Positions 1,245 through 10,977 of a DNA stretch of 22,159 nucleotides are shown in pieces. A program made the position numbers and the translations under genes. The notes beneath the pieces were generated by a model that saw nothing but the letters and a program-made list of their open reading frames with translations, was not told where the DNA came from and did not search any database. The stretch comes from a virus. Its lineage: Duplodnaviria; Heunggongvirae; Uroviricota; Caudoviricetes. Position 1 is the stretch's first letter. Every line of letters starts with the position of its first letter. The DNA is taken from positions 1-22,159 of the IMG/VR virus record IMGVR_UViG_2671180847_000010; one strand, given 5' to 3'.

Positions 1245-2402
1245 ATGCTCACCGTTAAGCAGATTGAAGCAGCAAAGCCGAAAGAAAAACCATACCGCCT
1301 TCTCGATGGTAATGGCCTGTACCTTTATGTCCCTGTGTCAGGGAAAAAGGTATGGCAGCTTCGCTACAAGATTGACGGTAAGGAGAAAATCCTGACCGTC
1401 GGAAAATATCCGCTTATGACTTTGCAGGAAGCAAGGGATAAGGCATGGACTGCGAGGAAAGACATCTCGGTTGGCATCGATCCGGTAAAGGCGAAAAAGG
1501 CTTCGTCTAACAACAATTCATTTAGTGCGATTTACAAGGAATGGTACGAGCACAAGAAGCAAGTCTGGTCAGTAGGCTATGCAACTGAACTTGCCAAAAT
1601 GTTTGATGACGACATTTTACCCATCATCGGCGGTCTTGAGATTCAGGATATTGAGCCGATGCAACTGCTGGAAGTAATCCGCAGATTTGAAGATCGCGGT
1701 GCAATGGAGCGAGCCAACAAAGCCCGCAGAAGATGCGGCGAGGTTTTCCGTTACGCTATTGTCACTGGTAGGGCTAAATATAACCCGGCACCTGACCTTG
1801 CTGACGCCATGAAGGGATACCGCAAGAAGAACTTCCCGTTTTTACCTGCCGACCAGATCCCGGCATTCAACAAAGCACTTGCAACATTTTCAGGAAGTAT
1901 CGTATCGCTCATTGCGACAAAAGTTTTACGTTATACAGCCCTAAGAACGAAAGAGCTTCGTTCCATGCTATGGAAGAACGTCGATTTTGAAAACAGGATT
2001 ATCACCATCGACGCCAGTGTGATGAAGGGACGCAAAATTCATGTGGTCCCGATGTCAGACCAGGTGGTTGAACTTCTCACTACGCTAAGCTCAATCACCA
2101 AACCAGTCTCAGAGTTTGTTTTTGCCGGGCGCAACGATAAGAAAAAGCCAATCTGCGAGAACGCGGTATTGCTTGTGATCAAACAAATCGGCTATGAGGG
2201 TCTGGAAAGCGGTCACGGATTCAGGCATGAATTCAGCACGATTATGAACGAGCACGAATGGCCTGCTGACGCTATTGAAGTGCAACTGGCACATGCCAAC
2301 GGCGGATCTGTGCGCGGGATTTACAACCATGCTCAGTATCTCGATAAGCGCAGAGAAATGATGCAGTGGTGGGCGGACTGGCTTGATGAAAAGGTGGCGT
2401 AA
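1245..2402 (+). CDS. intS: P4-family tyrosine integrase (IntS-like), transcribed away from argW
   Basis: Tyrosine-recombinase C-terminal region (..HGFRHEFST.., ..RGIYNH..) and an N-terminal region of the kind P4-family integrases carry; sits immediately 3' of a tRNA gene. Start placed at in-frame ATG 1245 (385 aa) rather than the track's GTG 1209; neither has a strong SD. Confidence 0.9.
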   Translation: MLTVKQIEAAKPKEKPYRLLDGNGLYLYVPVSGKKVWQLRYKIDGKEKILTVGKYPLMTLQEARDKAWTARKDISVGIDPVKAKKASSNNNSFSAIYKEWYEHKKQVWSVGYATELAKMFDDDILPIIGGLEIQDIEPMQLLEVIRRFEDRGAMERANKARRRCGEVFRYAIVTGRAKYNPAPDLADAMKGYRKKNFPFLPADQIPAFNKALATFSGSIVSLIATKVLRYTALRTKELRSMLWKNVDFENRIITIDASVMKGRKIHVVPMSDQVVELLTTLSSITKPVSEFVFAGRNDKKKPICENAVLLVIKQIGYEGLESGHGFRHEFSTIMNEHEWPADAIEVQLAHANGGSVRGIYNHAQYLDKRREMMQWWADWLDEKVA

Positions 2403-2575
2403 TGCCACCTCAATATCACACAGGACTATCATCCTTCCTCAAGTCGTTAATCGCGTGCGTAGCCAAACTCAATACATCAACATGTCGAAGCATGATATGC
2501 CATCCTATAAATGAACATAAGAATCATCTTGAAGCGTGAGTGGTAGCGCCTAATAGTTGTTAGAGAATGTAAACA

Positions 2576-2599
2576 CGGCATGCTCAAAGACACATGCCG
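2576..2599. terminator. Candidate bidirectional hairpin between convergent int and tailspike genes
   Basis: Inverted repeat CGGCATG-(10 nt)-CATGCCG, followed on + strand by a moderately U-rich tract (cctttgtaattatt). U-tract is weak on both strands. Confidence 0.3.
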
Positions 2600-2630
2600 C
2601 CTTTGTAATTATTAAAGCTCGTGTGCTTAC

Positions 2631-4538
2631 CTAAGCATTAAACCCTCCGACTCTTACTTTTAACGTGGTAAGCTTAGTATTTACTGTTATTTTTAAAGTT
2701 CCCGAGCCTGCAGCAACAGAGAATAAGCGGCGACCTCCAGATGTACCACCTCCAGCAGGAGGGGTGGTATCGAGTTCGCCTGTGATCGATATTGAAATGG
2801 TACCCTCACGGTTAGCAACGAGTAGCTCTAAACATTCAGCCCAGGTGTTTTGTGCAGAAGACCAAGCATCGATAAGGATTCTCTGTGTCGTTCTGTTTGG
2901 TATTGCGATGGATTTTACTTCACCTTCATTTACCAGACCTTGAAAACGAGTTCCATAATCTATCCAGCTAATGTTATAACCTGCATTTGTTGCAGGGTCT
3001 TGAGAGGTATACCAGGTCTGGGTTCGCACTCCAGTTTGACCGATTGTCAGTAGAGGACGAGCAAACTGATCGCGGTGAATGTATGCGTTAGCCCTTATTC
3101 CATTGCTTTGCAGATCTATATCTGCTGTTCGAGGGTTAGGAAAAGTAGCTTTTCCACCAACATCAAAAACATCATAATGATTTGCAACTGCAGGAATCCA
3201 TCCGTTCCTGTCCAGATTTCTAAAGAAATCCTCGAAAGCCAGCCAGTATGATTGCTGATGACCTAAAAGGTTAGGGTGAACAGTCTGTATTTCAGGGGTC
3301 CGGTCAAATAATGCCGTTTCACCATATTTAGCAACAGCATCAAACCAGTATTTTTCCACATCGATAAGCACGCAACCCATTTCTACAGCGATTTTCCTGA
3401 TCGCATCGTTTCCTCGAAGGAAGCGGACACCTGCTTGAATATTTACCCCATTCCACTCAAACGTGACATTTGAGTTTGCGGCAGATGGTATAATGTCATT
3501 ATCAGAGACTGGGGCCGGAGAAGATGAAGGCCATATTTGAGAAATTCCAGCCGGCATGCTCCAGCTATATTCAGAAATATTCGGATGAGGTGTGGTTGTT
3601 AGCACAACATCCCCGCCGGCCTCCCTGACTAAATTAATAGCATTTCGAAGGCGCTGTTTAAATCCGTTTTCATTGAATGTTTGCCCGGCATTATATTGTG
3701 CGGTAGGAAAATCATTCATTCCATATATAAACAAAGCAATATCAGGATATATTCCTTCAGTAACAACTTCAGGCCATTGGTTAACAATAAAATTATTTAT
3801 CGTTGAACCATTAACAGATTTGTTTGTGAAGTTAATGGGATAAATACGCTGCTTATTTAACGTATCGTTCATATACTCAAAAAATTTAGCAACTGGTGCC
3901 TGTGTTGCTGGATCAGGAAGCGTAGCACCAACCCCAACAGAAGAACCAAACCCATAGAGTCGAAATAAGTTCTGATAGCCAGAAACCCCATGCCGATAAG
4001 CTGTTAATTTATTGACGAAATTTGGGAAAAGGGCCTGTGATGATCCAGACGCAGCACGAATAGAAGCCTCTACCGTTCTTCCTGTTTCAGTCGCAACTAG
4101 GCTAGCACCTTCTTTTGAAGATAATCGGCAGTTAAAATCTGATATCTCATCAATTTCTGATTGTATTGCTGCCAGTAGCTCATCTACGTAGTGACGTAAC
4201 TGGTCAGGCTCGTATTTTAGAACATTAGGAAAATAGAACTGCTGAGCACCATATGCATCATAAACAGCCATAGAATGGCCTTGCACAGTAACGAACTTGG
4301 CAATCTGCCCGTTATATACCGGATATCCAGCAGCGTTAATGATGATTGGTTGCGAAACAGGAACATGAGAGCCGTCTTCGTTCTCTACATAAACCTGAAT
4401 CTGGTTTTCTGGACTTACCGGGTCAGTGTCAATTTTACCGATATAAATTTTTCCATTGGCTACGGCTTTAAAAGAACGAGCCATAGTGAAGAGTTGCGAA
4501 GGCATGCTTACCACAACATTGGCTGTAATGTCTGTCAT
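2631..4538 (-). CDS. Tailspike protein: P22-like head-binding N-terminal domain fused to a non-P22 receptor-binding region with SGNH-hydrolase-like motifs
   Basis: N-terminal ~115 aa ([11 protein letters not shown]...[18 protein letters not shown]...[11 protein letters not shown]) matches the conserved P22 gp9 head-binding domain as I recall it. Downstream region carries ordered motifs GFGSS (aa 196-200), NGST (243-246), GMND (273-276, nt 3711-3722) and VHP (420-422), resembling SGNH blocks I, II, III and V. Confidence 0.9.
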
Positions 4539-4670
4539 TTAATTTGCTCCAGATACAAGGAATCACCGAAGCATGGCTACGGTTGGTGTTTGTTGCATAC
4601 CGAAATGGTACGATTGTTGATTTGTACAGTAGGTTTTACGATGCCATTCCACCCATTTGGTGAGGCATTG
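4539..4670. promoter_or_regulatory. Divergent intergenic region between tailspike (-) and mnt-like (+) starts; presumed promoters/operators
   Basis: 132-bp non-coding spacer between two divergently oriented start codons; GGAG-type SD upstream of each start. Specific -10/-35 elements could not be assigned confidently by eye. Confidence 0.4.
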
Positions 4671-4928
4671 ATGATGTACAGCAAATACGATGAGGCGCAG
4701 TTCCACTTGAGGCTTACGCACGAGTTGCACGCTAAGATTAAGCAACGTGCAAAAATGAATAACAGGTCTATCAATTCCGAAATTGTGGCTACGATGGAAG
4801 AATCACTCTCCAAACCATCACCTGTAAGCGGGTATCGTGATGAAGAAGAGAGGCTGGCCTCATTAATCTCGGAACGAGTAAAAGAAGTTGTGGCTGATAT
4901 CCTTAGAAAAGAAAAAACCCGCAATTAA
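4671..4928 (+). CDS. mnt: Mnt-like ribbon-helix-helix repressor (immI-type)
   Basis: 85-aa product with an RHH N-terminus (FHLRLTHELHAKIKQRA..NNRSINSEIVATMEESL) and the segment SKPSPVSGYR, closely resembling P22 Mnt as recalled. SD GAGG 5 nt upstream of ATG 4671. The track's 217-aa ORF (4275..4928) is an upstream extension that overlaps the tailspike in antisense. Confidence 0.8.
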   Translation: MMYSKYDEAQFHLRLTHELHAKIKQRAKMNNRSINSEIVATMEESLSKPSPVSGYRDEEERLASLISERVKEVVADILRKEKTRN

Positions 4929-4936
4929 GCGGGTTT
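4915..4936 (-). terminator. Rho-independent terminator closing the minus-strand antirepressor operon; mnt stop codon lies in the loop
   Basis: Stem AAACCCGC / GCGGGTTT with 6-nt loop aattaa. On the minus strand the hairpin is followed by TTTTTTC TTTTC; on the plus strand the U-tract is poor. The mnt TAA (4926-4928) is in the loop. Confidence 0.75.
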
Positions 4937-4942
4937 AGTTGG

Positions 4943-5164
4943 TTAGTTATCAAAAAGTCCGTACGTTTCTTCTTCTTCAGGTGTAAGGGGAAGAATCTCT
5001 ACTCTATCTATAGATACCTTTTCAATGTACCCATGAGGTCTACTTAAAATTAAAGCTCTCTCATGCCACAGAACTCCAAGAATGTGATACCTTCCAGCAT
5101 CTCCTTTTACCCTGGCTCTTCCTTTGATTCTTGGCGGCATAATGCCATATCTTTTCTTTGCCAT
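4943..5164 (-). CDS. Hypothetical 73-aa protein, translationally coupled to the upstream antirepressor gene
   Basis: Start ATG overlaps the stop of the upstream gene (TAATG arrangement at 5162-5166); ORF ends just before the operon terminator. No recognisable domain. Confidence 0.5.
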   Translation of the reverse strand: MAKKRYGIMPPRIKGRARVKGDAGRYHILGVLWHERALILSRPHGYIEKVSIDRVEILPLTPEEEETYGLFDN

Positions 5165-5889
5165 TATGCAACATTGCTCCCATGAATCAGGTGTTGTAGT
5201 GCTTTAACACCCTCCGCATTGTAGCGGAATGCTTCCACCTGTTTGCTTGAATGCGCAGATTTATCCAAGAAGAACTTCCCGTACTGCTCAGTTTTGAGGT
5301 TGTTTGCGTTAGCAATGCGACCAATCTTGTTTGCCGTTACTCCAAGCTGCTCTGCAACCTCCCCTGCTGAGTAGTAATGCTCTTCTATTGCTGGAAGAGG
5401 TATTGCATTAAAACCAACTATCGGGTTGATTATGCTTGCTGCCGCAGTCTGCTTTGCTTCCGGCGCAAGATTTGGCATCAAATCTAACAGATTGGTAACA
5501 GCTTCAACCGTCATTTTCAATGTTCGAGCCTGGCGATACTCAACAAGTCCACTCGACGATTTACCGCTTTTAATGTGCGCTTCTTGCATACTTTCAAGTT
5601 TGTCTACAAGTGTTCGGCGAACTGCTTTAGATTCGCGAGCAGCAACACGAAGCGCCTGCTTGATAGTCATGGAGATAACATCAATGTCAGCCCCGTTTTT
5701 CCGACCTACACTTTTTGTGTAGGTCTCGCCCTCCAATTCATCCTCAATTTTCTCGATGAATTTGTTGTTACGTACTGATGGCTCTCCACATAACTTGCGA
5801 GCTTCATTAACCATCATCAGAAGACTTTGGCTGTCAATGGTTTTATCCGTGACAACGGATCCGATGTTTGCTACATTCTTCAAAGTCAT
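5164..5889 (-). CDS. Putative phage antirepressor (Ant/KilAC-like C-terminal region)
   Basis: 241 aa from ATG 5889 with SD AAGGAA upstream (track ORF begins further upstream at 5940). C-terminal segment YSAGEVAEQLGVTANKIGRIANANNLK... resembles KilAC/ANT antirepressor domains; domain call is from memory and needs a profile search. Confidence 0.7.
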   Translation of the reverse strand: MTLKNVANIGSVVTDKTIDSQSLLMMVNEARKLCGEPSVRNNKFIEKIEDELEGETYTKSVGRKNGADIDVISMTIKQALRVAARESKAVRRTLVDKLESMQEAHIKSGKSSSGLVEYRQARTLKMTVEAVTNLLDLMPNLAPEAKQTAAASIINPIVGFNAIPLPAIEEHYYSAGEVAEQLGVTANKIGRIANANNLKTEQYGKFFLDKSAHSSKQVEAFRYNAEGVKALQHLIHGSNVA

Positions 5890-5977
5890 TAGGCATTCCT
5901 TATGTGGTAGTAAGGGTGTGACATAGGCCGCCAGCAGCACACTGGCGGTTTTCTTTTTGCGCCGTCCGGCGCACCAA

Positions 5978-6604
5978 TCAATGAATCCATTCCTCGCCGC
6001 GCAGTTTTGTCAGCATTGGCTGAGCGTTCTTTACGACAAAATTGTTGGTATCAAGATTCTTCATTTCACGAAGAAGTGATTTCTTGGTTTCTTCTGACAT
6101 ATAGCGAGTCTCATATGCAATATCGTAAATTCTTCCTGAAAGCTCAGAACCAATTTGCTTCATTCCTGGGTAGATGTGTTTGCACATTTGTTGACTCTTC
6201 TCCATCCACAATTGTAAGTAGCAGAGATTAACCAGTTCTTCGTCAGTAAACTGTTTTGCAATCGGTGAGCATTCTGCCTGCCGATCCAAAATATCCAGCA
6301 CCCAGCGGCGGAACTCTTTGGCTACCGGAGTGCGAGCAAACATCGCGATTAGGTGGGCACCGCGTAGTGAGAAAACTCGCACTTTTTTGCGATAATTTCC
6401 TGAGGTACTCACTTCGAGTACCTGAGTCATTCCGGCGCTAAACTCATCGCTATACTTGTTATAAATCATTGTTACTGCACGGCTATTTGCATATTTAAGT
6501 GCAGATGCAATATTAGATGATGTAAACCAAACACCATGCATATCACGGGTGGGCACCAACTCAACTCCGTGGAAGTTGTAATCTGATTTTGCTACAATAT
6601 TCAT
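5978..6604 (-). CDS. Bro-N domain protein (antirepressor-like)
   Basis: Bro-N signature (..GVWFTSSNIASALKY..KKVRVFSLRGAHLIAMFARTPVAKEFRRWVLDIL..). Start placed at ATG 6604 preceded by SD AAGGAA; the track ORF starts at an upstream TTG (6709). Confidence 0.8.
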   Translation of the reverse strand: MNIVAKSDYNFHGVELVPTRDMHGVWFTSSNIASALKYANSRAVTMIYNKYSDEFSAGMTQVLEVSTSGNYRKKVRVFSLRGAHLIAMFARTPVAKEFRRWVLDILDRQAECSPIAKQFTDEELVNLCYLQLWMEKSQQMCKHIYPGMKQIGSELSGRIYDIAYETRYMSEETKKSLLREMKNLDTNNFVVKNAQPMLTKLRGEEWIH

Positions 6605-6677
6605 GTTAGTTTCCTTGCATACGGTTACTGACATAGAGGCCCGGTTTGTGTTCGCGCACTGCCGGGCTTCACTATTT

Positions 6678-6851
6678 TTATTGGATGACAACATCGCCCT
6701 TTGCCTCAAGTTTCATCAATAACTCCATTCGATAAGCTATCTCTGCCTGAATTGACCTATGGCATCTTTTTGCTGATTCGCGGATATGTGAATCAACCTT
6801 TTCTGTAAAACGAACCTGACGCGGCTTGATGGAAGATATCTTTTCAGTCAT
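6678..6851 (-). CDS. Arc-like ribbon-helix-helix protein (57 aa), first gene of the antirepressor operon; absent from the ORF track
   Basis: Hand translation of the minus strand: MTEKISSIKPRQVRFTEKVDSHIRESAKRCHRSIQAEIAYRMELLMKLEAKGDVVIQ. SD AGGAG 6 nt upstream of the ATG. RHH pattern (beta strand QVRFTEKV, then two helices) and RSIQAEIAYRME resemble P22 Arc RSVNSEIYQRVME as recalled. Below the track's apparent 60-aa cutoff. Confidence 0.6.
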   Translation of the reverse strand: MTEKISSIKPRQVRFTEKVDSHIRESAKRCHRSIQAEIAYRMELLMKLEAKGDVVIQ

Positions 6852-6950
6852 TATGCACTCCTGTTTTTGAAAAACTCATAATCTCACTTTTTGTAGTTTG
6901 ATTATTCACTCACACTCAGTATGAGTCAATGAATTTTTTATGGTGAACTA
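6852..6950. promoter_or_regulatory. Divergent control region between the antirepressor operon (-) and the CI-like repressor gene (+), with palindromic operator candidates
   Basis: 99-bp spacer between divergent start codons. Contains a 13-bp palindrome GTTTTTGAAAAAC (6863-6875) and an inverted repeat ACTCA-gta-TGAGT (6914-6926). Confidence 0.5.
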
Positions 6951-7592
6951 ATGAATTTTGACGATCAATTCCCATCAAGAGTATCTCTGGCAAGACAGTC
7001 CAGGGGTATGACGCAGGCGCAGTTGTCAAAATTAGCTGGTGTTGTTCAACGTCAAATAGCTGCATACGAGGGTGGTGAGGCTAAACCACGGCTTCGTGTA
7101 TTGCAGGCATTAGCCAACGCATTAGGCACTACGGCTGAGTGGTTAGCTCTGGGTGAAGGTCAGGGGCCTGGAACAAAAAACGTCATGCCTGACGTTCTGG
7201 TAAAGCAAATACCAATCCTCAAACTAGATGAAGTTATGCATTACCTAAACACAGGTGAACATTCATCGTCTAGATTTCATCCGGCAATATACAATGTTGG
7301 TGACTCTGCATTTGCATTGACTATTGAAGGTGAAGCTATGACTACAAGTTCAGGTATTAGCTTTCCCAGAGGATCAGTTGTCACGTTCAGCCCTCTAGTA
7401 AAAGCTAAAAGCAAAGATTATGTAATAGCATCATTGGATAAAGAGCAAATATTGAGCTTCAAGCAGGTTTACATTGGTGAAATAGAGACAAACTTAGTAT
7501 CCCTAAACCCAATGTATCCTAATATTCTTGTTAGAAATGAAGATGTTAGTATTTTGGCAACCGCAGTTTACCTTGAAATCCCGTTGCTTTGA
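6951..7592 (+). CDS. CI/LexA-like repressor: XRE-type HTH plus peptidase S24-like domain with Ala at the nucleophile position (predicted non-cleavable)
   Basis: N-terminal HTH (MTQAQLSKLAGVVQRQIAAYE). C-terminal region aligns by eye to lambda CI: DSAFALTIEGEAM vs CI DSAFWLEVEGNSM, SFKQV vs TFKKL, LNPMYP vs LNPQYP. Nucleophile position is Ala129 (codon gct at 7335-7337); Lys171 is retained; no Ala-Gly in the linker. Confidence 0.9.
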   Translation: MNFDDQFPSRVSLARQSRGMTQAQLSKLAGVVQRQIAAYEGGEAKPRLRVLQALANALGTTAEWLALGEGQGPGTKNVMPDVLVKQIPILKLDEVMHYLNTGEHSSSRFHPAIYNVGDSAFALTIEGEAMTTSSGISFPRGSVVTFSPLVKAKSKDYVIASLDKEQILSFKQVYIGEIETNLVSLNPMYPNILVRNEDVSILATAVYLEIPLL

Positions 7593-7652
7593 TATCCTTT
7601 AGGAAGCGACACATTATCATCCGGTGTTCTGCTCAAAACTAAGGAGGTTGGT

Positions 7653-8042
7653 GTGAAGCTATTTCTTGCTGCTATGTTCTTATTCATATCTTTTGGGGCT
7701 ACAGCAGAGTGCTGGGTCGTTGGAGATATGCGCGGAATAAGCTATTCAGAACGAAATAATTTCCATCCGGAAGAAGATGGTTTTAGTGGAACATTCATCA
7801 TTAAGACAAGCGGTGAAGATGCTAGCATCACATATTCTGGGACAGATGCGGGCGGCATGGCTTACAAAGTATTGTCTAAAAACTCCATCATAGGAATCGG
7901 CGCGAATGGCGAAACTCAACGCGTTATCGACTCATGGGTAATACATCCTACTGGAACAGTTTTAATGTCAAAAACCATTTCCGGTTATGGAAATATGGAT
8001 TCAACCAAAGCTTTTGTTGGAAAAGTAAAAAGAAAATGTTAA
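7653..8042 (+). CDS. Hypothetical exported protein (signal peptide), probably co-transcribed with the CI-like repressor
   Basis: GTG start 5 nt after a strong SD AAGGAGG. N-terminus MKLFLAAMFLFISFGATA-E looks like a Sec signal peptide with an A-x-A cleavage site; two Cys in the mature part. No terminator between it and the repressor gene. No recognisable domain. Confidence 0.7.
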   Translation: MKLFLAAMFLFISFGATAECWVVGDMRGISYSERNNFHPEEDGFSGTFIIKTSGEDASITYSGTDAGGMAYKVLSKNSIIGIGANGETQRVIDSWVIHPTGTVLMSKTISGYGNMDSTKAFVGKVKRKC

Positions 8043-8063
8043 TGATAGGATTATGGCCCTACA

Positions 8064-8249
8064 TCAACAGGTTCCGCGCCCCTGAGTAATTCTGTTGCGG
8101 ATTTGCTTCTTGCGGTGGTTTAAGCTGGATAGCTTGGCTTCTGCTTCTGATATTTGCGCATCTAGATCTTTAAGCTCAAGATCTGAAAGTCGCTGGTCAA
8201 GCAGGGTTTGATTCAACTCAATGTTGTTCAGGCGTTCTTCTATGGTCAT
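8064..8249 (-). CDS. Hypothetical 61-aa coiled-coil protein
   Basis: ATG preceded by a strong SD (TAAGGAG, 6-nt spacer); heptad-like Leu/Ile spacing. It lies directly after a terminator U-tract with no room for its own promoter, so expression is uncertain. Confidence 0.35.
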   Translation of the reverse strand: MTIEERLNNIELNQTLLDQRLSDLELKDLDAQISEAEAKLSSLNHRKKQIRNRITQGRGTC

Positions 8250-8265
8250 GATTTCTCCTTATAAA

Positions 8266-8287
8266 AAACCCACCTGACGGTGGGTTT
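8266..8287 (-). terminator. Rho-independent terminator after the lipoprotein gene (possibly bidirectional)
   Basis: Stem AAACCCACC / GGTGGGTTT, 4-nt loop. On the minus strand it is followed by a U run (TTTTTTAT), 9 nt after the lipoprotein TAA. On the plus strand it is followed by TTTCATTTCTT. Confidence 0.7.
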
Positions 8288-8293
8288 CATTTC

Positions 8294-8713
8294 TTAATCT
8301 TGCTTTGTAGACGGTATAAGGGATGCGTTTGCCTCTTTTGGCTTCAAGGTATACATCCCACCATTAAATGGATCAACAGCAAGCCAACCAATTAACCCAC
8401 CAAACACAAGGTTTCCACCAATATACCAACCATTAGCATTGGCTTTGATTGGCAGGGTAACTGGTTCGTACCCATCCTTCTCCATAGTGATCTGGTAGCT
8501 CTTTTTGCCAAAATAACTACCATCTGACTTGGCAAGAGTTACTCCTTGCGGGGTCTTACCTTGCGCAACAATCACGCCTGATTCGTCTTTTACCTTAAAG
8601 CTCGCACCGGAAGGATTGCTGTTCACTTGCACAAGCTGTGTTTCGTCACCAACAATAGTTGCGCACCCAGATAACATGATAGCGCCAGCAACGACGCTAA
8701 TAATCCTCTTCAT
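8294..8713 (-). CDS. Prophage lipoprotein with PEGA-like motif, insulated accessory gene
   Basis: MKRIISVVAGAIMLSG-C has a lipobox (LSGC) after a hydrophobic signal. Segment NPSGASFKVKDESGVIVAQGKTPQGVTL...KDGYEPVT resembles the PEGA motif. Start at ATG 8713 (track ORF starts 4 codons upstream at 8725). Own terminator downstream; 83-bp non-coding spacer upstream. Confidence 0.78.
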   Translation of the reverse strand: MKRIISVVAGAIMLSGCATIVGDETQLVQVNSNPSGASFKVKDESGVIVAQGKTPQGVTLAKSDGSYFGKKSYQITMEKDGYEPVTLPIKANANGWYIGGNLVFGGLIGWLAVDPFNGGMYTLKPKEANASLIPSTKQD

Positions 8714-8808
8714 ATCAATTTCCATATCTAAAAAACCGGAAACATCCTAATGACAAACCATTCAAATGTGAAGCACGAGATAAGATCAATCCATCCGTGG
8801 ACGACTAA

Positions 8809-10977
8809 TTACTCCTGTGTCATTCCGCTTAGCGATACTACAATCCCAGCCCTCGACAAACGCTGGAACTCTTCGTTTCCTAGTGCATCGCGAATTGCTT
8901 TTACGGCGGCCTTATTTGCCATAAATCTGCGTTCCGCCGCCGCTAATGCGCCATCACTTGCCCCAACCTTAACTGCCTTTGTTGCCTCTTGAACAGCCTT
9001 TTCAATAGCGTAACGACCACTTCTGGTTGCGGATAATTTCGCTATCGATCCTTTTGCTATCGCATCAATTGCTCCACCTGCAGCGCCACCAACTATTGCT
9101 CCAATAACACCTCCTCCAGAGAACCCTGCGATAGCGCCAGCGGTTGGAAAAGCGCCAGACAATACGCTCTCTAAAACTGGATGAAGGCCATTCTCAAGAG
9201 TGCTAATGGCTGGCATAGAGCGCCCTGTCTGTTCAACATATCGAAGTGGCTTTGTTGCAGCTCTTGCAAGTTCTCCGTATGAACTTGTAATCCTGCCAAG
9301 TTCTGGAGAATATCGACTAATTGCCTTCACGTTTTGTGGGGTAAGAATAGTCGCGATATGCTTAATTCCAGCCCCTTCAGACTTACCTCCGCGTACCCCT
9401 TGCGATACCGCATCTTGTAATATTGATGCAATTGCTGGCGCGCGTTCCGACTCAGGTAGGGCGCTTATTATTTTATGAAACTGACCTGTTCCACTTTTTG
9501 CTGAGCCCTGTAACGCCTTAGAGCCATTAGTTACTAACTGATCAGTTGCAAGGTCTCTACCAAACGCTGCTTCAGCCTGTTCTTGTGCTGTAAATCTTGC
9601 CTTTGACAGATCATTAGCTTTTTGCCAGTCATCAAGAAAACCGCCATTTTGAGCCATTATGCGCATATCTTCCGTTGCTGCATCACGAAGCTCAGCCATG
9701 CGCCTTGCCGTATTTGCCTCACCAGACCTTATATACTTCTGCTCTGCGTCAGCAAGTTTACTTCGCCATGCCTTCATGGCATCAAACGTGATTCCTTTTT
9801 TACCAGTTTTAGCATAAGCAGATGCGAATTGTTTCATCTCAGGAGTTAGCGGCATGCCAGCCAAAATATCACCCTGAATTGTAGCGTTCAGGTTTGACAT
9901 TCTGGCCTTTGCGTCAGGCATCGTGGAGCGGACGCTATCCCATGCGGCCTTTTCTGAATTTTTCATTTTATCAATGCTTGCCAAAACCCTCTGTTTTATG
10001 GCTGCACTTTTTTCTGATGCAGTTCCTGCTTCAGCCCCAAACTCATCCAATGCTGAGTTAAATTTCGACTCTATTTCACTGAATGCTTTGGTGTGTGCAT
10101 CCTGTGTAATTCCGGGCTTTGACGCCAGAATCCCCTCCGCCTGAGCAAGACCACGACTACCTGATCTCATGCCAGGAGTTAATGCGTTGATATCTATTCC
10201 AGCAGTATCTGCTGCTTTTGCTATTTCGTCTGACACGTTAGCTGACTGTCTGGCAATAATCTCTCTTCCTGTACCAGACTTTGCCATTTTCGAAACATCA
10301 TTAGCAGAATTCAGTGCTGCACCACCAAGAGCCTGTGAAACCCTTGGCGCAATAACGCGCCCGACACCTGAAAGAACGCCTTGAGCACCAATATTGATAC
10401 CACCGTTAATGGCAGCATTTTGTGCAAAGTCGCCCTCCTGATTTGCAGCATCAGCAAGAGAACCTGCAATCATGTTTCCTGCGGAACCGATATCTCCAGC
10501 GAGCTTTGCTGTCGCTCCAGCAGCTTTTGCCGCTGTGCCAATTGGCAGGAGATACCCACCAAATGTTTCACCGGCTTGCGCCCAACGGTCTGTCGGTCGA
10601 TCGACAGGGCGATAAACATCATCCAAAACCTTGGGGCCACCAAGCCCATGGCTGATTGCATTAATCAGACTTGCGCCACCCTGCAATACGTCAAATGGTA
10701 TGTTTACCAGACCACGACCAGCCTGTTCTGCAATTTGCCCTGCACTTTGACCACCTGTGAGCCAATCGCCAGCTTGTTGCATCAATGATGGTTCTTCTTT
10801 CTGCTGCTGATGCGGAGGGTATGCAGCATAAAACTGATCTCTTGCTTCAGCCCATTTGTCACCAGCCTTAGGGGCAACAACCTCATCAAAATATTGCGCT
10901 TGAGCCTGTGCTTTCTGTTCTTCAGTTAACGCCTGATACTGTGGAGAAGCGATAACATCTTTCCATGCTTTAGCCAT
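8809..10977 (-). CDS. DNA ejection (internal virion) protein, P22 gp16-position
   Basis: Last gene of the late operon, in the position of P22 gene 16. Start overlaps the gp20 stop (ATGA). Gly/Ala-rich hydrophobic segment near the C-terminus. Confidence 0.85.

Follow-up and report, generated by a model that had tools for sequence, protein, structure and literature searches.

How is an antirepressor operon kept silent inside the late operon of a P22-like prophage when the gene that faces its promoter is not mnt? The question is raised by a Caudoviricetes sequence of 22,159 nucleotides (IMG/VR record IMGVR_UViG_2671180847_000010, positions 1 to 22,159), which we analysed over its full length and call the window. 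The window is the end of a P22-like (Lederbergvirus) prophage. The slot in question lies inside the late operon, as does immI of P22, with the gene for a gene 16-type ejection protein (8809-10977, minus strand) on one side and the tailspike gene (2631-4538, minus strand) on the other. It holds an antirepressor operon on the minus strand, a CI-type repressor gene divergent from it and an Mnt homologue beyond its far end. A sequence-only reading had described this slot as a rearranged immI-like module. The genes, the terminator and the stop codon in the terminator loop are all where that reading placed them, as judged from the open reading frame (ORF) list, the sequence and Pfam. The view that this is an immI-type antirepressor region holds: an Ant homologue, a CI-like gene and antirepressor-family genes lie in the stretch that separates the gene 16 homologue from the tailspike gene. 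To our knowledge, the textbook immI circuit has been studied only in its P22 version.

The module is not a chance pattern of ORFs, since it recurs at 97% identity and with identical gene order in JEP4 and, at 80% coverage or more of the interval 4400-7700, in 26 of 5426 complete E. coli genomes. The order gene 16, module, tailspike gene is the same in JEP4 and in one RefSeq prophage, and the prophage of E. coli HS is 99-100% identical over the interval, broken by IS3. Insertions are found in two carriers, IS3 in E. coli HS (NC_009800) and IS100 in MS15236 (NZ_CP082094), which implies that some copies of the module are inactivated. The gene 16-tailspike interval of P22-like phages has been named the ant moron (Villafane et al. 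2008, PMC2629481). Ten types were distinguished among sixteen genomes, the HS prophage among them as 'HS-1', whose apparent absence of arc 'suggests a mechanism for controlling [ant] that differs from P22'; the region was also said to set the number of late transcripts reaching the tailspike gene (PMC2629481). We assign the interval 4400-7700 to the HS-1 type with high confidence. Window, HS-1 and JEP4 (MT740315) have essentially the same DNA, with no structural difference apart from the IS3 insertion in HS, and the HS-1 and JEP4 records go no further than gene boxes or automated labels ('C2', 'Rha', 'KilA', 'mnt'). The HS-1 layout is already on record, and its regulation is analysed here for the first time.

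We propose that the interval is a mosaic of two units. Unit A (about 4943-7592) would be a portable antirepressor cassette, and unit B (about 4539-4936) a separate block composed of the Mnt homologue, its own upstream control region and a conserved tailspike leader. The role of P22 Mnt would then fall to the divergent CI-type repressor. Ten terminator-like sites are observed within 4300-7800, where 3.1 are expected. Membership in a defence system was rejected, as PADLOC matched no defence-system component beyond generic helix-turn-helix (HTH) matches of the CI-like protein.

The Mnt homologue, the terminator and the tailspike leader

The 85-residue product of 4671-4928 (plus strand) is a true Mnt homologue, as had been supposed. 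It matches Pfam Arc at 9.9e-15 and is 48% identical to P22 Mnt over 73 residues, C-terminal region included. The ribbon-helix-helix (RHH) domain, with its GRS-x-NSE motif, is joined to the Mnt C-terminal tetramerisation region, and the DNA-reading strand has Q, H and R where P22 Mnt has H6, N8 and R10. The location of the gene differs from that of P22 mnt, which is divergent from its operon. Here mnt is on the other side, downstream of the operon and convergent on it, as the sequence-only reading had noted, and divergent from the tailspike gene; the gene divergent from the operon is of CI type.

An intrinsic terminator for the operon lies at 4915-4936 (minus strand). Its hairpin reads AAACCCGC-AATTAA-GCGGGTTT, after which the minus strand continues with TTTTTTCTTTTC, and the Mnt stop codon TAA (4926-4928) sits inside the loop (-13.9 kcal/mol, z = -4.07 vs shuffles). 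A terminator that insulates the tailspike gene had been presented as a departure from P22. The terminator is present, but it marks no difference: its position is equivalent to that of the P22 terminator after ant, which the P22 record places between ant and gene 9. The hairpin encodes the Mnt C-terminus and stop and would be bidirectional, also ending transcription from the operon promoter ahead of the tailspike gene. Late transcripts that are antiterminated would be expected to read through it, as in P22.

The genes for Mnt, the CI-like protein and a small RHH protein all lie within 3 kb, and the sequence-only reading took the three as regulators of the same antirepressor promoter in one integrated circuit, a rearranged immI denser than that of P22. 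The homology of Mnt to the repressor of the P22 ant operon is real, and the whole arrangement is intact in JEP4 and the 26 E. coli genomes. The distribution of mnt argues otherwise. The structure of the mnt/terminator unit, with the stop codon in the hairpin loop, is kept whatever gene lies upstream, in JEP4, VSe13, Klebsiella phage phiKp_30, Citrobacter L131 and Buttiauxella L139 (L numbers denote loci compared here), even though Mnt of L139 is only 49% identical. In VSe13 only an antirepressor fragment of 96 residues lies upstream of the unit. Sf101 has only an Mnt homologue in its gene 16-tailspike interval and lacks the stop-in-loop hairpin, and phages L and ST64T, which have no ant operon, keep only mnt beside the tailspike gene (PMC8022706). 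Phages L, ST64T, Sf101 and VSe13 share with the window the divergent mnt-tailspike junction and the conserved intergenic block described below, VSe13 also the terminator; unlike the window, they have no functional antirepressor operon upstream. In E. coli the mnt allele (at least 80% coverage) is found in 64 genomes, twice as often as the pair of CI-like and RHH genes, found in 28. The cassettes of L171 and L169 have no adjacent Mnt.

The mnt-tailspike intergenic region (4539-4670) was aligned in 16 variants, among which a block at 4594-4670 is conserved, Sf101 (68% Mnt identity) included. The only conserved palindrome near mnt is a near-palindrome, ATACCGAAATGGTAC, at 4597-4611. A candidate mnt promoter (TTGTTG, 17 bp, TACGAT) follows just downstream; these roles, assigned by eye, would reproduce the geometry of the mnt operator and promoter in the P22 control-region annotation. 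The palindrome has no copy in the operon control region (6852-6950). As judged from these comparisons, Mnt, the stop-encoding hairpin and block 4594-4670 travel together as a unit separate from the operon. Since the unit travels separately and its palindrome is not repeated at the operon promoter, nothing in the sequence points to Mnt as a regulator of the operon, and we regard a single circuit of three regulators as unlikely. Another palindrome, the hairpin ACCGAAGCATGGCTACGGT at 4565-4583, 25 nt upstream of the tailspike start codon, was rejected as the Mnt operator because it is conserved tailspike leader and present in P22 too. This leader sequence is conserved in P22 (two copies upstream of gene 9), CUS-3, HK620, Sf6 and epsilon34, where it marks the end of shared DNA, and the CUS-3 record calls it 'boundary sequence'.

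The operon genes and their predicted antisense RNAs

The antirepressor gene ant (5978-6604, minus strand, true start at the ATG at 6604) encodes 208 residues with Bro-N (Pfam 1.9e-10) and P22_AR_C (2.8e-14) domains. The C-terminal domain is 29% identical to the C-terminus of P22 Ant (E = 1e-9), whereas the N-terminal domain is Bro-N here and P22_AR_N in P22. The protein belongs to PHROG 245, 'anti-repressor Ant', and is 76% identical to Ant of SPN3UB, which stands in a classical Mnt/Arc/Ant arrangement. The following gene (5164-5889, minus strand), which has no counterpart in P22 immI, encodes 241 residues and falls in PHROG 1726, called 'anti-repressor' by annotation only. The 241-residue protein has no similarity to P22 Ant, and PDB sequence searches with it and with the 208-residue protein returned only chance or low-complexity matches. 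Its C-terminal ~55 residues are predicted to form a MerR/Xis-like winged helix. We defined 11 species representatives as those with a full-length 241-residue homologue, and in all of them an ant homologue lies immediately upstream. The second operon position is held by other Ant-like families in L169 and SPN3UB.

These results do not sustain the earlier view of one antirepressor function split across two genes. The 208-residue protein has the complete two-domain architecture and the second position can be filled by other families, so the operon carries two different proteins. By sequence comparison, the 241-residue protein is a distinct family and a conserved partner of Ant. The last gene of the operon, likewise without a counterpart in P22 immI, is a 73-residue ORF (4943-5164, minus strand; PHROG 4977, where no function is assigned). 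Its ATG overlaps the stop codon of the 241-residue gene (TAATG), which suggests translational coupling. The ORF is annotated in JEP4 and RefSeq genomes and was not found beside the 241-residue gene in the other species among the representatives. Neither Pfam nor NCBIfam has a family for the 241- and 73-residue proteins.

Cassettes of the SPN3UB type, in which an Mnt-like gene is divergent from Arc-like, Ant and second-regulator genes, lie among siphovirus tail genes. They resemble the window in operon logic, in a closely similar Ant, in a sar homologue and in a second Ant-like gene downstream. They differ in having two P22-type RHH regulators, a second gene of another family and another insertion site.

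In P22, the antisense RNA sar limits Ant synthesis. The window has two antisense RNA units of this kind, both new here and absent from the sequence-only reading. The first, sarA (6590-6678, plus strand), is a homologue of P22 sar, with matches to P22 Psar/sar and to SPN3UB. An Rfam scan of the whole window gave only the tRNA and no sar family match; the unit was recognised by comparing the sequence directly with the sar annotated in P22. An extended -10 element, TGCTACAAT, lies at 6590-6598 within the first ant codons, and its P22 counterpart is TGCTATACT. The predicted RNA (about 6605-6678) starts next to the start codon of ant and covers that codon and the Shine-Dalgarno sequence, just as P22 sar runs from the first ant codons over the ant ribosome-binding site. 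It ends with a hairpin (6636-6670) followed by a T-run. The fold is the two-hairpin fold of P22 sar (z = -5.69, compared to -5.26 for P22 sar). A pattern scan found the sarA promoter/start motif in at least 120 viral contigs, with 61 distinct RNA variants. On the hand-specified outer terminator stem, 89.5% of the cells are paired and 22 cells are changed on both sides. An RNAalifold consensus from a MAFFT alignment of 35 sar variants was poor, as subfamilies were misaligned, and was dropped in favour of counting pairs on this stem.

The second unit, sarB (5849-5961, plus strand), lies over the start of the 241-residue gene and was found by a promoter and terminator scan. Its promoter consists of a -35 GTGACA at 5849-5854 and an extended -10, TGCTACATT, at 5869-5877, inside the first codons of the gene, and the predicted RNA (about 5884-5961) covers the start codon and Shine-Dalgarno sequence. 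The terminator reads GCCGCCAG-CAGCACA-CTGGCGG, then TTTTCTTTTT. The T-run is present on the antisense side only, so the hairpin is not an operon terminator. The hexamers are kept in twelve diverged loci, synonymous codon positions included, and so are the hairpin and the T-run; of the other loci listed for comparison, all 13 have retained these three features. In the covariation alignment of 12 sequences (the window and 11 loci from different species), five of the eight stem pairs have compensatory changes, 98.9% of the cells are paired, and none of 500 shuffles reaches the score. A sarB unit also precedes the pRha-family second gene in L169. A second copy of sar implies that the second gene must be gated as tightly as ant. 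Directly after the ant stop codon and past the sarB T-run there is another GC-rich hairpin, TGCGCCG-TC-CGGCGCA, at 5958-5973; elements of the form GCGCC...GCGC like it are kept in L129, L131, L137, L139 and L141.

The two large proteins could be something other than antirepressors, namely DNA-binding regulators or effectors directed at the host or at competitors (the Bro-N/KilA/MerR-like class). In that case the cassette would be a module for an early function or for use as a weapon between phages, kept under tight gating, and not an immunity region. Pfam describes Bro-N as a DNA-binding-type domain, and the terminal winged helix of the 241-residue protein, its dissimilarity to P22 Ant and the purely annotational origin of the 'anti-repressor' names fit this alternative. 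Against it, the 208-residue protein shares P22_AR_C with the experimentally defined P22 Ant, the same cassette in L171 carries a full Ant with P22_AR_N and P22_AR_C, and the logic of sar RNA, RHH protein and maintenance repressor is that of P22 immI. We consider it quite unlikely that the proteins act in this other way.

The CI-like repressor and the proposed circuit

The gene divergent from the operon (6951-7592, plus strand) encodes a CI/LexA-type repressor of 213 residues with Pfam HTH_3 (9.3e-13) and Peptidase_S24 (1.3e-12) domains, which matches the N-terminal domain of the 434 repressor and the C-terminal domain of lambda CI. Its family is head-to-head with an antirepressor operon in seven of seven contexts (the window, L136, L139, L141, L169, L171 and L172), which span three phage morphotype backgrounds and three different Ant architectures. 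The partner operon has the order RHH, Bro-N/P22AR_C Ant, 241-residue gene in the window, ant and 241-residue homologues in L136, L139 and L141, and a P22_AR_N gene in L172. In eight of the 11 species representatives, and in SPN3UB, the slot of the CI-like gene is taken by an RHH gene of Mnt/Arc type. As the family always faces antirepressor operons and the slot elsewhere holds Mnt/Arc-type proteins, the simplest reading is that the CI-like protein replaces Mnt. We regard it as the operon's probable maintenance repressor and as a counterpart of P22 Mnt in function.

Two of the seven contexts have other surroundings. In L169 the pair formed by the CI-like and 57-residue RHH genes drives a cargo of Bro-N and pRha genes (3134-4681) among siphovirus tail genes, between those for the tape-measure and minor-tail proteins, and the CI-like repressor retains the catalytic serine. 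In L171 the pair (1974-4660) drives a full P22_AR_N/P22_AR_C Ant and a 241-residue gene; a different tailspike, of Tail_spike_N type, follows directly, and there is no mnt.

The CI-like gene could alternatively be an independent moron that provides immunity against another phage, with the operon under the RHH protein and the antisense RNAs only. It does lie in a moron-rich interval, where P22 has sieA, and other likely exclusion genes follow at 7653-8725. However, an independent moron would not account for the head-to-head orientation in every one of seven contexts across three morphotype backgrounds, nor for a position interchangeable with Mnt-type repressors, and we find this alternative improbable.

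JEP4 has an ordinary c2-cro-c1 immunity region elsewhere, of canonical form, so that the CI-like protein is an extra repressor. The C2 protein of that region retains the Ala-Gly site, the Ser and the Lys of a cleavable repressor. In a HMMER alignment to the lambda CI C-terminal domain, the CI-like protein of the window has Ala (EGEAM) facing the nucleophile Ser149 and Lys matching Lys192; the family alignment confirms that the Ser-Lys dyad is lost through a change of Ser to Ala, with Lys kept. No Ala-Gly (or Cys-Gly) cleavage site was found in the linker in the family alignment, where KLDEV occupies the place of the Ala-Gly of lambda CI and JEP4 C2. GDSM is kept by most relatives, both at 81% and at 49% identity or less, which implies that the serine disappeared within this lineage, with independent losses in L139 and P0142. 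The sequence-only reading had not noticed that the catalytic serine is absent. LexA and lambda CI mutants with Ser changed to Ala do not cleave. A role as SOS sensor, in which RecA-stimulated self-cleavage derepresses the antirepressor and induces the prophage (compare Gifsy and coliphage 186 Tum), would suit the two-domain LexA/CI architecture and the Ser-Lys dyad kept by many relatives, but we rejected it as extremely unlikely because of the Ser-to-Ala change and the missing Ala-Gly site, the main C2 repressor of JEP4 moreover being itself of the cleavable type. LexA-controlled antirepressors (Gifsy-1/3, coliphage 186 Tum, SPC32H Ant) likewise place an antirepressor operon under a repressor of LexA/CI fold; here, in contrast, the repressor is encoded by the phage itself and has neither the catalytic serine nor the cleavage site, and no SOS input would be expected.

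The divergent control region (6852-6950) contains a predicted promoter and two palindromes. The best hit of a promoter scan is a sigma-70 operon promoter on the minus strand, with TTGACT at 6929-6924, a 17 bp spacer and AATAAT at 6906-6901. Between the -35 and -10 elements lies a 19-bp palindrome, ACTCACACTCAGTATGAGT, at 6908-6926, which is unique within the window. A 13-bp palindrome, GTTTTTGAAAAAC, at 6863-6875 occupies the operon leader just 5' of the ribosome-binding site. Such short operator-like palindromes were missed by a generic inverted-repeat finder and were found with a custom script. The -35 region TTGAC(T/A)CAT is common to the window, L136 and L141, and a CTCA-N3-TGAG core to the window and L169. 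No LexA box (CTG-N10-CAG) was seen by eye in the control region.

The first operon gene (6678-6851, minus strand) encodes a probable RHH protein of 57 residues in the position of Arc. The sequence-only reading had called it Arc-like, which holds for its position and probable fold, whereas no BLAST similarity to P22 Arc was detected. An hhalign comparison with Arc/Mnt gave a probability of 78% (E = 1.9e-5), the best PDB match is AmrZ (E = 0.015), and the Pfam matches to ParD_like (8e-4) and Arc (0.011) are both below the cut-off; the several weak matches concur in placing the RHH core at residues 10-43. The protein accompanies the CI-like gene in L141, L169 and L171 at 63-90% identity. Position and profile matches together make it a probable positional analogue of Arc.

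The arrangement is like P22 immI in its divergent, probable maintenance repressor, its small first gene for a probable RHH protein, an Ant with P22AR_C and a terminator before the tailspike gene. It is unlike P22 immI in that the maintenance-repressor slot holds a CI-type HTH/S24 protein and that the small protein shows no sequence relationship to Arc. In a lysogen, the non-cleavable CI-type repressor would bind the palindrome overlapping the promoter and hold the operon off, which is the task of Mnt in P22. On infection of a cell without this repressor the promoter would fire, and the RHH protein, the Bro-N/P22AR_C antirepressor, its 241-residue partner and the 73-residue ORF would be expressed. 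The RHH protein would then shut the promoter down again, like Arc. The sarA and sarB RNAs, each initiated within the opening codons of a large gene, would pair with the ribosome-binding sites and block translation, an effect that would count most for read-through late transcripts. The antirepressor would be expected to inactivate C2/CI-type repressors by binding them. We judge this full wiring, in which the CI-like protein maintains repression, the RHH protein provides feedback, two antisense RNAs act and Mnt stands apart in its own unit, to be reasonably probable on sequence grounds, though well short of certain.

Several observations weigh against parts of this account. In L171, L136 and L139 there is no conservation of the palindrome that overlaps the promoter; since L171 does not share it, its assignment as an operator, and with it CI-like binding at this site, is tentative. 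The RHH assignment of the 57-residue protein comes from several matches that are concordant and individually weak, and a single-sequence AlphaFold2 (AF2) model, an uninformative single long helix, has no RHH fold. The sarB fold is only modestly better than shuffles (z = -1.84), and coding constraint could explain part of the conservation of its promoter. To call the 241-residue protein a 'second antirepressor' is an assumption, since its fold is of a DNA-binding type and no homology to a characterised antirepressor was detected. Finally, the Mnt operator is a candidate, and Mnt may still have a role at the operon promoter as far as the sequence goes.

We also put forward, as a possibility rather than a probability, a broader reading. 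Enterobacterial phages may share a widespread, portable 'double antirepressor' island, of which the cassette is one example. Each of its two different Ant-like genes would be gated by a sar-type antisense RNA of its own, and a small RHH protein would act as feedback repressor. The maintenance repressor would be interchangeable, either an Mnt-type RHH protein or a protein of CI type in which the S24 domain, through decay, serves for dimerisation only. It would insert at different late-operon sites in podoviruses and siphoviruses. On this reading, a lone Mnt gene next to a tailspike gene would not be a decaying remnant but a guard, silencing the ant promoters of related phages that superinfect.

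The proposed circuit would give the HS-1 variant a concrete wiring, with a non-inducible CI-type protein in the role of Mnt, an unrelated RHH protein in that of Arc and duplicated antisense control. The analysis also shows that regulators, antirepressor genes and antisense units are swapped as separate building blocks, an exchange that matters for the ways in which temperate phages in a polylysogen overcome one another's immunity. Given the known flux of the region, neither the exchange of regulators nor the doubling of antisense control is surprising, neat as both are, and they do not amount to a new kind of system. The results are also relevant to annotation, where the CI-like gene is publicly named 'C2' and Mnt 'partition ATPase'. 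In the JEP4 record (MT740315) the CI-like gene of the immI region is 'repressor protein C2'. Public records label the Bro-N/P22AR_C gene 'Rha' and the 241-residue gene 'KilA', and misname Mnt homologues 'partition protein ATPase' or 'chromosome segregation ATPase', a naming that recurs in the description of PHROG 795. The records with such problems are MT740315, KJ832078 and NC_002371.

Genes on either side of the module

At 1-933 the window has a yfdC-like gene for a formate/nitrite transporter; next come tRNA-Arg(CCT) at 1009-1083 and, on the plus strand, an integrase gene (1209-2402). The integrase gene converges on the tailspike gene at a distance of only ~230 bp, and there are no gtr/oac conversion genes. 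The order yfdC, tRNA, integrase, tailspike places the integrase on the tailspike side of the attachment site, unlike in P22. This junction of yfdC and int is also seen in the Salmonella contigs L172 and L173, where next to it a CI-like gene diverges from a P22_AR_N gene, a remnant.

On the side of gene 16, three small moron-like genes occupy 7653-8725, where P22 has sieA. They encode a 129-residue signal-peptide protein (7653-8042, plus strand; PHROG 2651), a 61-residue coiled-coil ORF (8064-8249, minus strand) and a 143-residue lipoprotein (8294-8725, minus strand; PHROG 6823) with weak Cor/PEGA similarity, and may serve exclusion functions. The tailspike itself joins the P22 head-binding domain (residues 1-113) to a GDSL/SGNH esterase domain in place of a beta-helix glycosidase, which suggests a receptor-deacetylating spike.

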